Part shown: positions 10,390-14,509 of the stretch, in pieces
How positions within the stretch are numbered: position 1 is the first letter of the stretch
How the letters are laid out: each line of letters starts with the position of its first letter
Sequence record: PV340576.1
DNA: 49,669 nt
Strand: one strand, 5' to 3'
DNA from: Escherichia phage PhiR68_2
Position numbers and translations under genes: made by a program
Notes under the pieces: model-generated
Told to the model about the DNA's origin: nothing
The model's input: the letters and a program-made list of their open reading frames with translations, nothing else
Databases searched by the model: none

Positions 10390-10456
10390 TGAAACAGGTG
10401 AGTTGAGTTCAAACTGTAGTACAATTCTCTCCAGTTTGAACAGGAAAGAATATGCT

Positions 10457-10789
10457 ATGAACCCTTATATTTATCTTGGTGGTGCAATACTTGCAGAGGT
10501 CATTGGTACAACCTTAATGAAGTTTTCAGAAGGTTTTACACGGTTATGGCCATCTGTTGGTACAATTATTTGTTATTGTGCATCATTCTGGTTATTAGCT
10601 CAGACGCTGGCTTATATTCCTACAGGGATTGCTTATGCTATCTGGTCAGGAGTCGGTATTGTCCTGATTAGCTTACTGTCATGGGGATTTTTCGGCCAAC
10701 GGCTGGACCTGCCAGCCATTATAGGCATGATGTTGATTTGTGCCGGTGTGTTGGTTATTAATTTATTGTCACGAAGCACACCACATTAA
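10457..10789 (+). CDS. emrE: small multidrug resistance efflux pump EmrE, 110 aa
   Basis: MNPYIYLGGAILAEVIGTTLMKFSEGF... with conserved membrane-embedded Glu14 context; 4-TM SMR architecture. Confidence 0.9.
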   Translation: MNPYIYLGGAILAEVIGTTLMKFSEGFTRLWPSVGTIICYCASFWLLAQTLAYIPTGIAYAIWSGVGIVLISLLSWGFFGQRLDLPAIIGMMLICAGVLVINLLSRSTPH

Positions 10790-11043
10790 AATAATTTGTT
10801 TCTAAACGACTAAAATATGGAGGCTCTTATATTTATATGAGCCTCGTTTTATGCTTTTTGTTAATGTCTTTATTTTTTATGTATTCTTTTGTGCTTTCAA
10901 GATTATGGCGTAAGAAAATTGCAATACGATTATTGTTGTATATTCAAGATAATGTGACCTTAATTGTCTTTTTAAATAAAAATTAAACAAAAATTATATC
11001 CCACCACTAAGGTTTATAAAAGCATACGTTAGCAGGTGTCACC

Positions 11044-12570
11044 ATGAAAAAAGCCATAGCATATATGCGATTTTCATCACCAGGTCAGATGTCTGGCGAC
11101 TCATTAAACCGACAGAGAAGACTTATTGCTGAATGGTTAAAGGTAAATAGTGATTATTATCTTGATACCATAACATATGAAGATTTAGGATTAAGTGCAT
11201 TCAAAGGAAAGCATGCACAATCAGGAGCTTTTTCGGAATTTTTAGATGCTATAGAGCATGGTTATATATTGCCAGGAACTACATTGTTAGTTGAAAGTCT
11301 GGACAGACTTTCAAGAGAAAAAGTCGGTGAAGCGATTGAACGTCTGAAATTGATTTTGAATCACGGTATTGATGTTATAACTCTTTGCGACAATACAGTC
11401 TATAATATTGACTCTTTGAATGAGCCATATTCATTAATAAAAGCCATACTTATAGCACAAAGGGCAAATGAAGAAAGCGAGATAAAGTCAAGTCGGGTTA
11501 AATTATCATGGAAGAAAAAACGGCAGGATGCACTGGAATCAGGTACGATTATGACGGCGTCTTGTCCGAGATGGCTCTCCTTAGATGACAAAAGAACGGC
11601 TTTTGTTCCAGACCCCGACAGGGTGAAAACTATTGAGCTAATTTTTAAACTCAGGATGGAAAGGCGCTCATTGAATGCAATAGCCAAGTATTTAAATGAT
11701 CATGCTGTAAAGAATTTCTCAGGAAAAGAAAGTGCATGGGGACCTTCTGTAATTGAAAAATTATTAGCGAATAAAGCTCTGATAGGTATATGCGTACCTT
11801 CATATCGTGCAAGAGGGAAAGGGATAAGTGAAATCGCTGGCTATTATCCCAGAGTCATATCAGATGATTTGTTTTACGCTGTACAGGAAATTCGGTTGGC
11901 ACCTTTTGGTATTAGCAATAGTAGCAAGAATCCTATGCTAATAAATCTACTTCGAACAGTTATGAAGTGTGAGGCTTGTGGTAATACCATGATTGTTCAT
12001 GCGGTATCTGGAAGTTTGCATGGCTATTATGTTTGTCCGATGAGAAGATTACATCGATGTGACAGGCCATCAATAAAAAGAGATTTGGTTGATTATAATA
12101 TCATTAATGAATTGCTTTTTAATTGTAGCAAAATTCAACCAGTTGAAAACAAGAAAGATGCTAATGAAACTTTAGAGTTAAAAATTATTGAGCTTCAGAT
12201 GAAAATTAATAATTTAATCGTTGCATTGTCTGTCGCGCCTGAAGTTACCGCTATAGCAGAGAAAATAAGACTATTAGATAAGGAATTACGAAGGGCTTCG
12301 GTATCATTGAAAACTTTGAAGAGTAAAGGTGTAAATTCATTCAGTGATTTTTATGCTATTGACTTAACCAGTAAAAATGGACGAGAGTTATGCCGTACAC
12401 TTGCCTATAAAACATTCGAAAAAATCATAATTAATACGGATAATAAAACCTGTGATATCTATTTTATGAATGGCATTGTTTTTAAACACTATCCTTTAAT
12501 GAAAGTAATATCCGCCCAGCAGGCGATAAGTGCTCTCAAATATATGGTTGATGGTGAGATTTATTTCTAA
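11044..12570 (+). CDS. ybcK: large serine recombinase family protein (YbcK-like), 508 aa
   Basis: N-terminal resolvase-type catalytic region (YMRFSSPGQ...), Cys-rich CEACGN...CPMRRLHRC zinc-ribbon segment; AT-rich. Confidence 0.75.
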   Translation: MKKAIAYMRFSSPGQMSGDSLNRQRRLIAEWLKVNSDYYLDTITYEDLGLSAFKGKHAQSGAFSEFLDAIEHGYILPGTTLLVESLDRLSREKVGEAIERLKLILNHGIDVITLCDNTVYNIDSLNEPYSLIKAILIAQRANEESEIKSSRVKLSWKKKRQDALESGTIMTASCPRWLSLDDKRTAFVPDPDRVKTIELIFKLRMERRSLNAIAKYLNDHAVKNFSGKESAWGPSVIEKLLANKALIGICVPSYRARGKGISEIAGYYPRVISDDLFYAVQEIRLAPFGISNSSKNPMLINLLRTVMKCEACGNTMIVHAVSGSLHGYYVCPMRRLHRCDRPSIKRDLVDYNIINELLFNCSKIQPVENKKDANETLELKIIELQMKINNLIVALSVAPEVTAIAEKIRLLDKELRRASVSLKTLKSKGVNSFSDFYAIDLTSKNGRELCRTLAYKTFEKIIINTDNKTCDIYFMNGIVFKHYPLMKVISAQQAISALKYMVDGEIYF

Positions 12571-13034
12571 ATAATGATCTCGGATTTTAAGTTATGCTAT
12601 GGTGATAAAGTGCAAGACAGAATTAATTATCTTTGACGAAACTTAATGGGTAATTACTTTGTTTGCTCCCACAAGCGAGTTTTGTACGGCTGTATTGGGG
12701 TAGTAAATGAGCTATACAATCTTAATCATTTGTTAGGTGAGAACTCTTGGTCGCAGATTCAAATACTGAAAATACGTGACAAATTATTATGAGCAAAATG
12801 GTGTATGTCACGTATTTTGAATGGTAGGTTAAAAAATAACACCGACTTTCGTAGGTATTACTAATAATAAAGCAGAGTTTTTAGATAGTATCAATGTGCT
12901 TTGTGTATATTGTGGCAAATAATTGGGTTGGGGGTACAATTGTGATTGCTTTTGCATGAACATTGCGCCTTTATGCATAATGAGATAAAGGAATATCAAA
13001 TAAAATAACGATAGGTCATAACAAAGAGGTTTTT

Positions 13035-13586
13035 ATGAAAACACTTATCGTTTCAACTGTATTGGCATTCATAACATTTTCTGCGCAGGCTGCAGCATTT
13101 CAGGTCACTAGTAATGAAATAAAAACAGGAGAGCAACTTACAACGTCTCATGTCTTTTCTGGATTTGGGTGTGAAGGTGGTAATACATCGCCCTCATTAA
13201 CCTGGTCTGGTGTTCCTGAAGGTACCAAAAGCTTTGCCGTAACTGTATATGATCCAGATGCACCTACAGGCAGTGGTTGGTGGCATTGGACTGTTGTTAA
13301 TATTCCAGCAACAGTAACATATTTGCCCGTTGATGCAGGGAGACGTGATGGAACAAAACTGCCGACTGGTGCTGTTCAAGGCCGAAATGATTTTGGCTAT
13401 GCTGGGTTTGGTGGCGCATGTCCTCCTAAAGGAGATAAACCACATCATTACCAGTTTAAAGTATGGGCTCTAAAAACTGAAAAGATTCCTGTAGATTCTA
13501 ACTCCAGCGGAGCGTTAGTTGGTTATATGCTTAATGCTAATAAAATCGCAACCGCTGAGATAACACCAGTTTATGAGATAAAGTAG
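13035..13586 (+). CDS. ybcL: periplasmic PEBP/RKIP-family protein (YbcL-like), 183 aa with signal peptide
   Basis: Signal peptide MKTLIVSTVLAFITFSAQA; PEBP-like DPDAPT...GWWHW motif. Confidence 0.8.
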   Translation: MKTLIVSTVLAFITFSAQAAAFQVTSNEIKTGEQLTTSHVFSGFGCEGGNTSPSLTWSGVPEGTKSFAVTVYDPDAPTGSGWWHWTVVNIPATVTYLPVDAGRRDGTKLPTGAVQGRNDFGYAGFGGACPPKGDKPHHYQFKVWALKTEKIPVDSNSSGALVGYMLNANKIATAEITPVYEIK

Positions 13587-13595
13587 GGTGAGAGT

Positions 13596-14393
13596 ATGCT
13601 GGCAAGAGGTAAGACTAACTTAAAGATCGAAGAAATACGGATGCATAAACATCATGAGATTCATAGGGTTAAGCCTCTTATGCCAGCTTTGTGTCGTATC
13701 CGTCAGGGAAAGAAAGTTATCAATTGGGAGACGCATACTTTAACTGTTGATAATAATCAAATAATATTATTTCCTTGTGGTTATGAATTTTATATTGAGA
13801 ATTATCCTGAAGCAGGGCTTTATCTTGCAGAAATGCTTTACTTACCCATTGATTTAATTGAGAGTTTCCAAAAACTTTATACGGTAACTGATCAAATACG
13901 TAACAAAACAAGTTTCTTTTTACCTCAGAATCCTGAGTTAATATATTGTTGGGAGCAACTAAAAACATCTGTTTCCCGAGGCTTCTCAACTAAAATTCAG
14001 GAGCACTTAGCAATGGGCGTTCTACTTTCGTTAGGAGTGAATCATGTTAATCATTTACTTTTATCATATAGTAAACAATCATTGATAAGTCGTTGTTATA
14101 ACCTGCTGCTATCCGAACCCGGCACAAAATGGACAGCAAACAAGGTTGCTCGATATCTCTACATTTCTGTTTCTACATTACATCGCCGTCTAGCAAGCGA
14201 GGGGGTAAGTTTCCAAAGTATACTGGACGATGTGAGGTTAAATAATGCGTTGTCTGCTATACAAACGACGGTAAAACCTATAAGCGAGATTGCCAGAGAA
14301 AATGGTTATAAGTGTCCTTCTCGTTTTACTGAAAGATTTCATAATCGTTTTAATATAACACCAAGAGAGATAAGAAAAGCTTCCAGAGAGTAA
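13596..14393 (+). CDS. ybcM: AraC-family transcriptional regulator (YbcM-like), 265 aa
   Basis: C-terminal AraC HTH ([20 protein letters not shown]...[27 protein letters not shown]). Confidence 0.8.
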
Positions 14394-14509
14394 AAGTGTT
14401 TTAAGAAGGAGCAATTCTATCGATTTTGATTTTGGGAAATCAACACGGCATAATTATGTCACCGGAGCCTGAACAACTCCGGTGACTTCTGCGCTAAACG
14501 GGGACGTTT

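Follow-up and report, generated by a model that had tools for sequence, protein, structure and literature searches.

A modular cargo hotspot in a DLP12-type lambdoid prophage and its large serine recombinase YbcK

In this study, the interval between ren and ybcN in Escherichia phage PhiR68_2 (sequence record PV340576.1) was analysed, together with the recombinase-like protein YbcK that it encodes. The whole stretch of 49,669 nucleotides is called the window, and positions refer to it unless another sequence is named. Positions 10390-14423 are a cargo hotspot with three independently varying modules: emrE; ylcJ-ybcK; and a swappable slot that here holds ybcL and ybcM. Judged from sequence and structure prediction, YbcK is a genuine and complete large serine recombinase with its catalytic residues in place. 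The explanation favoured here, with rather more confidence than doubt, is that the hotspot combines three acquired modules and that YbcK is a functional accessory recombinase serving the phage. The recombinase gene is located as follows.

11044..12570, + strand: ybcK, intact large serine recombinase of 508 amino acids (Pfam, PHROGs, alignment, AlphaFold2/Foldseek, and the ratio of nonsynonymous to synonymous divergence, dN/dS)

An earlier note, made from the sequence of this DNA alone, had described YbcK as large-serine-recombinase-like with a zinc-ribbon segment, and this description was borne out by Pfam, by invariant cysteines, and by Foldseek. Pfam matched the protein to Resolvase (5.5e-19), Recombinase (2.3e-14), and Zn_ribbon_recom (7.9e-08). 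PHROGs matched it to phrog_95 'integrase' (4e-120), with a partial match to phrog_125. Residues were compared in an alignment of 24 family members with identity down to 29%. R9, S11, and Q15 were invariant, as were the ESLDRLSR segment at E84-R91 (E84-S85-L86-D87-R88, S90, and R91), the RAxEES motif of the E-helix (R140, E143, E144, and S145), and all four zinc-ribbon cysteines (C309, C312, C331, and C339). Loss of the catalytic serine, which the earlier note had named as a ground for giving up its proposal, was thus not seen, and the other catalytic residues were equally invariant.

A single-sequence phmmer search of YbcK against PDB gave no match, and a family profile was required. Over profile positions 190-473, a stretch that takes in the coiled coil, the profile matched the C-terminal region of A118 integrase (4kis, E = 4e-15); it also matched the catalytic domain of TP901-1. 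The AlphaFold2 model of YbcK (mean predicted local distance difference test score 79.7) contained a catalytic domain, a long alphaE helix, a recombinase domain, a zinc ribbon, a coiled-coil hairpin, and a C-terminal alpha+beta unit. The predicted coiled coil was an antiparallel helical hairpin of residues 370-397 and 401-430. In a Foldseek search, this model aligned over its full length with serine integrase complexes bound to DNA, those of PhiC31 and Bxb1 among them, with E values of 1e-19 to 1e-12. The protein parts by which membership in the large serine recombinases is judged, namely the catalytic domain, the recombinase domain with a four-cysteine zinc-ribbon domain, and the coiled coil, were found in YbcK.

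The divergence and distribution of ybcK were investigated. Between phage lineages, dS was 0.12-0.18 and dN was about 0.01, giving dN/dS of 0.06-0.09. The gene was present in 1,427 of 5,426 complete E. coli genomes (26%), and 1,400 of these carriers had at least 80% of the ybcK block. Only two interruptions by insertion sequences (IS) were seen among 60 sampled records. The protein was also encoded by 11 isolated Escherichia phages with 97.6-100% identity. Both phages that were inspected, 4A7 and PhiR34_1, had a tyrosine integrase at the canonical position; in 4A7 the tyrosine integrase and an excisionase lay about 10 kb from ybcK. Full-length relatives of constant length occurred across Enterobacterales at 41-61% identity. 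With dN/dS this low at dS up to 0.18, with nearly all carriers retaining most of the block, and with catalytic residues invariant across this family, it is very improbable that YbcK is a functionless hitch-hiker heading for decay, even though no substrates were identifiable, the gene is silent in K-12 (PMC4150792) and lost in a common remnant described below, and occasional IS insertions and a variant with a 30-codon in-frame deletion occur.

The degenerate copies sat in visibly defective prophages. The variant with the 30-codon deletion (478 amino acids) was found in a defective prophage next to ybhC, in the lambda attachment (att) region (23 contigs; loci L093-L096). In this prophage, gam-bet' was inverted and joined to the 3' end of P/ren. 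The arrangement was considered as a sign of YbcK-driven inversion and rejected: the breakpoints were in P and bet and did not adjoin ybcK, which was itself shortened. The partial ybcK match in strain LR-50 was an IS1-mediated deletion.

The hotspot around ybcK contained the following further features.

10087..10389, + strand: ren, an open reading frame (ORF) annotated as 'protein ren' in strain C5; last backbone gene left of the hotspot
10381..10796, + strand: emrE cargo module (EmrE coding sequence 10457-10789; Pfam Multi_Drug_Res 2e-35); block kept in a Nissle-type remnant
10790..11043, + strand: 5' leader of ybcK, with the reported Rho/NusG-dependent terminator t_ybcK (PMC4150792)
10820..10860, + strand: terminator-like hairpin (GAGGCTC...GAGCCTC) with a T-rich tail after emrE, from direct reading and folding
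10837..10986, + strand: ylcJ, hydrophobic small protein of 49 amino acids, annotated in C5 and in phages; absent from the gene list of the earlier note
12612..14423, no strand: variable cargo slot, here spacer plus ybcLM; breakpoints 12611 and 14424/5 common to O157, GE3, SCU-124, and 4A7
12612..12879, no strand: 268-bp spacer of the window/K-12-type phage only, absent from O157/4A7-type phages and from the Nissle remnant
12880..14393, + strand: ybcLM operon module (Pfam), kept as a block in the Nissle remnant
14424..14611, + strand: conserved right boundary element, present in all architectures
14608..15063, + strand: ybcN (NinB/Orf-like; phrog_72 NinB/Orf 6e-52); first backbone gene right of the hotspot

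The ORF map and Pfam agreed with the earlier placement of emrE, ybcK, ybcL, and ybcM between ren and a ninB-like ybcN. O (8373-9392) and P (9389-10090) directly preceded ren in the ORF map. YbcN was a weak Pfam NinB match (1.3e-4, under the cutoff) and a clear NinB/Orf match in PHROGs. The four genes are accessory genes in the nin region, unrelated to core phage growth, as had been proposed. The proposed AT-richness was also evident: the GC (guanine plus cytosine) content of 10390-14423 was 0.363, compared with 0.505 in O-P-ren and 0.485 in ybcN-quuD. Of the two long AT-rich intergenic regions that had been described, both had low GC (0.272 at 10790-11043 and 0.330 at 12571-13034), but 10790-11043 was not empty, since it held ylcJ and the terminator-like hairpin.

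The hotspot was compared with sibling prophages and phages. In the O157:H7 prophage at icd, in GE3, in SCU-124, and in phage 4A7, homology to the window ran through ren-emrE-ylcJ-ybcK to 12611 and resumed at 14424/5. The variable slot thus started 41 bp past the ybcK stop codon. In place of spacer and ybcLM, O157 had a 280-bp filler, GE3 had P22AR-C and a hypothetical gene, and SCU-124 and 4A7 had an esterase gene on the opposite (minus) strand. Other siblings with O-P-(ren) and the ybcN-ninE-ybcO-rusA-ylcG-quuD backbone had none of emrE, ybcK, and ybcLM; these held DUF4041 with P22AR-C, or P22AR-C with HEPN, and their left breakpoints differed (10349 and 10100). The island had been suspected of entering as one unit. 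This view was not sustained, since at least three modules varied independently with their own breakpoints. The island was far from uniform among relatives, so the proposal did not fail on the ground of uniform presence, the other ground that had been named for abandoning it.

Atypical GC, a position between backbone genes, alternative cargo in siblings, and retention of cargo after prophage decay were all found, as in a moron or cargo hotspot. A self-contained element was not indicated: no flanking repeats were present, and the modules varied separately with different boundaries. Site-specific, integron-like crossover at the slot boundaries was considered and rejected, as homology at the left joint faded in patches and the two joints had no common motif. 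The hotspot joints look like ordinary lambdoid mosaic joints.

A second arrangement of the cargo was found in Nissle 1917-type strains. In these, emrE-ybcL-ybcM-porin lay between fliE and yedK without phage genes (locus L002, 8001-11857). The locus matched the window in three blocks: 10381-10796 (emrE), 12880-14610 (ybcLM), and 16383-18090 (the 3' end of quuD and the porin gene). It is thus a DLP12-type prophage stripped of all but three cargo modules. Base-level alignment of the junction showed that 10797-12879 (ylcJ-ybcK) was replaced by 4 bp, with no repeat at the ends. This deletion crossed the slot boundary at 12611, and the locus had at least two further clean deletions. Because its endpoints straddle the independently defined boundary at 12611 in a locus with further clean deletions, the state without ybcK is a deletion and not an empty insertion site.

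The emrE-ybcL junction of the remnant was present in 2,627 of 5,426 complete E. coli genomes (48%). The remnant genes were intact, and purifying selection on them was evident from dN/dS against the phage copies of 0.018 for emrE, 0.15 for ybcL, and 0.14 for ybcM. The host thus keeps the cargo (emrE, ybcLM, and the nmpC-like porin gene) and discards ybcK along with phage functions. The Nissle-type remnant is a tidy case of moron domestication.

Sites on which YbcK might act were searched for. Searches of 10300-14700 and of the whole window yielded only short repeats at chance level; neither the island nor any module was bracketed by direct or inverted repeats or by att-like sites, in agreement with the earlier remark that YbcK has no obvious partner sites. 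The window gave no candidate partner sites for YbcK, though short att half-sites would escape the repeat searches. Orientation variants were absent from about 90 sampled genomes, which were all collinear apart from IS insertions. A 50-bp palindrome was present between ybcK and ybcL at 12769-12818, with perfect 13-nt arms (AAAATACGTGACA / TGTCACGTATTTT), a 24-nt spacer, and a fold z of -3.8. It was considered as an att site of YbcK and rejected. Its host spacer of 268 bp was missing from other ybcK-bearing phages, and this lack of conservation alongside ybcK makes the palindrome unlikely as the cognate site of YbcK. A possible role is that of an operator or of an RNA hairpin ahead of ybcLM.

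These results bear on the suggestion that YbcK is a DNA invertase, a switch that controls the adjacent ybcLM or emrE. PinQ and PinR of other E. coli cryptic prophages do invert prophage DNA (PMC12529663), and the palindrome between ybcK and ybcL would suit such a role. Against this, no inverted site pair bracketed any segment, no orientation polymorphism was seen among the collinear genomes, and the palindrome was confined to the K-12-type spacer. The architecture of YbcK is of the integrase type, with recombinase domain, zinc ribbon, and coiled coil, and lacks the small helix-turn-helix C-terminus of invertases; ybcLM, moreover, already has its own regulator (PMC8464067). A switch, which the earlier note had raised, is therefore hardly to be credited.

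The contexts of YbcK relatives were investigated. A clade with 39% identity to YbcK was found in Mixta, Serratia, Leclercia, and Rahnella (loci L027-L030, about 9800-14000). Its recombinase block was 92-96% identical at the DNA level, with host flanks far more diverged. In three of the four genera the block started within a truncated ORF for a type II secretion system (T2SS) ATPase, about 78 bp ahead of the gene; in Rahnella it began about 120 bp further left. In Mixta (L027) the recombinase gene was followed by two AbiTii genes. There is good sequence evidence that this clade is an active, recently spread integrative element carrying defence genes. In Yersinia, Ewingella, Citrobacter, and one Atlantibacter, the relative lay at the prophage end, past the tail-fibre and cargo genes.

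In two further loci, L097 (from a sequencing-run assembly) and L014 (from Atlantibacter), the relative was part of the nin region of another, different lambdoid phage. These loci had a common block that started exactly 120 bp upstream of the gene, and their left neighbours differed. In L097 (9652-12831), a 2.98-kb recombinase-KGG-DinI segment lay between direct repeats of about 200 bp (86% identity) of the DUF1367 5' end. The upstream DUF1367 copy was cut off about 150 bp before the recombinase gene, and the same nin region encoded a SIR2-domain protein. Such repeats could have arisen when a site-specific insertion restored its target, or could mark a joint made by illegitimate recombination.

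Across contexts, the common part was only the gene with a leader of about 70-120 bp. One Atlantibacter locus was near ssrA, and no tRNA or tmRNA association was found in 22 other loci. Between E. coli ybcK and relatives of 50-60% identity, no common non-coding flank was found. The YbcK subfamily, as seen in these alignments, behaves as a single-gene cargo unit that would be derived from integrases. A second, distinct YbcK-like sequence was observed in the Shigella flexneri chromosome (L034, 10001-10918), with 43% identity over residues 1-310 only, apparently truncated.

The relatives and the Nissle locus were weighed for the possibility that ylcJ-ybcK, possibly with emrE, is a small integrative element, or a remnant of one, inserted into the nin region by YbcK. 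The block end about 78 bp before the start codon in three genera of the 39% clade, abutting the truncated T2SS ATPase ORF, the repeat-flanked segment of L097, the exact common start in L097 and L014, and the mere 4 bp in place of 10797-12879 in Nissle would all suit such an element. In E. coli, however, no repeats or att-like dyads occurred at 10797/12879, and the Nissle endpoints straddle 12611 amid at least two other clean deletions. The genes emrE, ylcJ, and ybcK occurred together in every E. coli prophage and phage inspected, and no gain or loss of ybcK alone was seen in an identical backbone. Strong purifying selection on ybcK within another element is also unexpected for a stranded remnant. 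Such an insertion is considered unlikely; the relatives sustain it as a minority view but lend it no support at the E. coli locus. The earlier suggestion of a remnant of a second integrative element did not hold up, given the lack of flanking repeats and att-like sites, the deletion origin of the state without ybcK, and a gene that is not decaying.

A role in conflict between elements was also weighed, in which YbcK would act in trans as a recombinase on competing phages, satellites, or plasmids. DUF4041 and HEPN-domain genes occupied the same hotspot in siblings, one relative stood beside two AbiTii genes and another in a nin region with a SIR2 gene, and the family is conserved as a single-gene cargo unit in several phage types and plasmids. 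A search of PADLOC-DB v2 (E <= 0.01) gave no match for YbcK, YlcJ, YbcL, YbcM, EmrE, or YbcN, and the neighbourhood association is anecdotal, covering a handful of loci. That the domesticated remnant has shed ybcK speaks against a lasting benefit to the host. A defence role is accordingly rated as improbable.

The accessory, phage-serving reading set out at the start is preferred to these alternatives. It is favoured, among other things, by the relatives of the 39% clade, which act like the integrases of mobile elements. YbcK is not the integrase of this prophage: the tRNA-Arg junction carries the tyrosine integrase intD, and ybcK has an internal position, between ren and ybcN. The DLP12-type lambdoid prophage integrates at tRNA-Arg through its own tyrosine integrase. 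The three AT-rich modules would have been acquired separately: emrE with its terminator-like hairpin; ylcJ-ybcK; and the slot holding the autoregulated ybcLM. Modules would be exchanged by ordinary mosaic recombination, homologous or illegitimate, at conserved backbone or linker sequence, and not by YbcK at flanking sites.

As a gene of the delayed-early nin region, ybcK is located downstream of pR, with an intrinsic-type hairpin and a Rho-dependent terminator ahead of it, and is probably silent in the lysogen. N-type antitermination from pR would read through, so that ybcK would be switched on only after infection or induction, as its position and the published terminator suggest. Because ybcK is probably silent in lysogens and expressed on antitermination read-through, YbcK would serve the phage rather than the host, for example as an auxiliary integrase at att sites elsewhere. 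In this role the enzyme would still be active at a specific site.

Several points weigh against the preferred reading. The searches above yielded neither att-like partner sites nor flanking repeats nor orientation variants for YbcK, so its recombinase activity and target are not demonstrated. The flank survey comprised about 90 sampled rows out of 1,427 ybcK-positive genomes, and this limit counts on the same side. Purifying selection indicates that the protein matters, but not that YbcK recombines DNA. Overexpression of ybcK improved sabinene tolerance and its deletion lowered it (PMC7181518), and this solvent-tolerance phenotype hints at an effect on the host that is not easily squared with a role in the service of the phage alone. 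Expression by N antitermination rests on the gene position and the published terminator.

A wider proposal is put forward tentatively, as possible rather than probable: YbcK would represent a new use of serine integrases, as a single-gene accessory large serine recombinase in the cargo positions of Enterobacterales temperate phages that have a tyrosine integrase, switched by antitermination and active at a specific site. Such a recombinase might provide a second attachment site for the phage, or might act on competing mobile elements.

The left part of the hotspot was investigated further. EmrE is a model small multidrug resistance transporter. The mechanical ORF of emrE started at TTG 10403, and the annotated EmrE of 110 amino acids corresponded to 10457-10789. 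A 35-bp palindrome was observed at 10407-10441 (GTTCAAACTGTAG...CTCCAGTTTGAAC), just upstream of the ribosome-binding site of emrE, and was kept in the Nissle remnant. Its fold was not significant (z = -1.3), and it had no Rfam match. The hairpin after emrE had a folding energy of -15.2 kcal/mol (z = -3.2), and none of 200 shuffles reached equal stability; this hairpin escaped the strict terminator scan. The gene ylcJ accompanied ybcK in every E. coli locus inspected, and Pfam PF23688 YlcJ matched the homolog in L094. In rho and nusG mutants, ybcK mRNA increased, and the untranslated region before ybcK was reported to be a trac-like Rho-dependent terminator (PMC4150792). Rfam gave no credible match to structured RNAs, and promoter-like motifs were no more frequent than expected by chance.

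The right part consisted of the ybcLM module and the boundary element. The gene ybcL (13035-13586) encodes 183 amino acids with a signal-peptide-like N-terminus, MKTLIVSTVLAFITFSAQA, and matched Pfam PBP/PEBP (3e-42). The gene ybcM (13596-14393) encodes 265 amino acids and matched Pfam HTH_18/AraC (9.5e-17). YbcL is a periplasmic RKIP homologue with an available crystal structure (PMC8464067). The earlier note had proposed that regulation by YbcM be checked; for ybcLM the answer is already published, since YbcM was found to bind ahead of this operon, and deletion of ybcM lowered H2O2 survival 8-fold (PMC8464067). YbcM has been mapped by chromatin immunoprecipitation with exonuclease digestion (ChIP-exo).

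The boundary element comprised a promoter-like TTGATT-N17-CATAAT at 14426-14454 (scan hits at chance level), a hairpin at 14458-14486 (z = -4.8), and an ORF of 33 amino acids at 14510-14611 that overlapped the ybcN start. About 150 bp of this element (14425-14578) were duplicated between cassettes in two siblings (L099, 3884-4038; L100, 2341-2469) with 80-91% identity. The element may be a linker for modular exchange, or a terminator/promoter unit of the nin region.

The source of the DNA was assessed by comparison with other genomes. The 5-kb region 10000-15000 was 100% identical in nucleotide sequence to E. coli strain C5 and 99.8% identical to K-12; K-12 carries IS3 in this interval, which the window lacks. 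In C5 the prophage adjoins tRNA-Arg and has the tyrosine integrase intD, along with a complete complement of genes for replication, lysis, heads, and tails. Positions 7836-24568 (about 16.7 kb) were 99.7% identical to the isolated phage PhiR34_1. The 5-kb region is thus the DLP12 region of E. coli, here in an apparently complete and probably not cryptic prophage. The genes emrE, ybcK, ybcL, and ybcM are all previously named and annotated in K-12, and the region is already known. Coordinates of C5 were transferable only within about 7800-24600 of the window. In the early-left region (1-7000) the window and C5 differed, and an IS3-family element near intD in C5 was apparently absent from the window. 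A 22-nt repeat array of the TTACCYGAATCAGGTAA type at 8810-8930 inside O corresponded to lambdoid origin iterons, and the phage replication origin appears to be present.

The present analysis resolves what had been taken as one island into three modules of a general lambdoid cargo hotspot. In about half of E. coli genomes, a stripped prophage remnant persists that holds host-useful cargo but no ybcK. YbcK, although overlooked, is complete as a large serine recombinase, and in viable phages it is subject to strong purifying selection. Among the papers found, none characterised YbcK as a recombinase, and none described a full-length serine integrase as a nin-region moron. If YbcK is active at a defined site, it would be a native serine integrase of E. 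coli, including K-12, with possible use in genome engineering, and would give an example of a lambdoid phage that combines two unrelated systems of site-specific recombination; otherwise the locus would be an ordinary moron cluster.

The locus was compared with known systems. The gene content and order of K-12 DLP12 (renD-emrE-ybcK-ybcL-ybcM-ylcH-ybcN-ninE-ybcO-rusA-ylcG-quuD-nmpC) match the window, as does attachment at tRNA-Arg with intD. Unlike cryptic K-12 DLP12, the window is free of IS3 here, keeps O, P, and the head and tail genes, and is nearly identical to PhiR34_1. Like the morons of lambdoid nin regions (in lambda, from ren/P to Q), the window has accessory genes of atypical GC with terminator-like and promoter-like elements between early genes. 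As with lambdoid mosaic exchange, siblings have alternative cargo in one position and a conserved linker at the joint. Unlike the nin morons described in the papers found, the cargo here includes a full-length serine integrase, which recurs as a 59%-identical lineage in another lambdoid nin region.

PinE, PinQ, and PinR, the small serine invertases of E. coli cryptic prophages, have in common with YbcK the serine-recombinase catalytic domain, and are carried by cryptic prophages of the same host (PMC12529663). The Pin enzymes are small invertases (PMC12529663) that flank an invertible segment, whereas YbcK has 508 amino acids, integrase-type DNA-binding domains, and no invertible segment. Compared with A118/LI Int, TP901-1, PhiC31, and Bxb1, YbcK has a like domain order of catalytic domain, alphaE, recombinase domain, and zinc ribbon with embedded coiled coil. 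The nucleophile serine and the arginines are conserved as in these integrases, and the structural matches are full-length, although identity to solved serine integrases is only 13-23%. In contrast to these integrases, YbcK is not located beside the attachment site of its element, and neither an attP/attB nor an attL/attR pair was found for it in the window. Unlike integrases of the A118/PhiC31 type, it shares its prophage with a tyrosine integrase, to which the integration of the prophage can be ascribed, and it has no known directionality factor. A further distinction from the solved serine integrases is an additional, conserved alpha+beta unit at the C-terminus of YbcK (about residues 444-508, phrog_2371).

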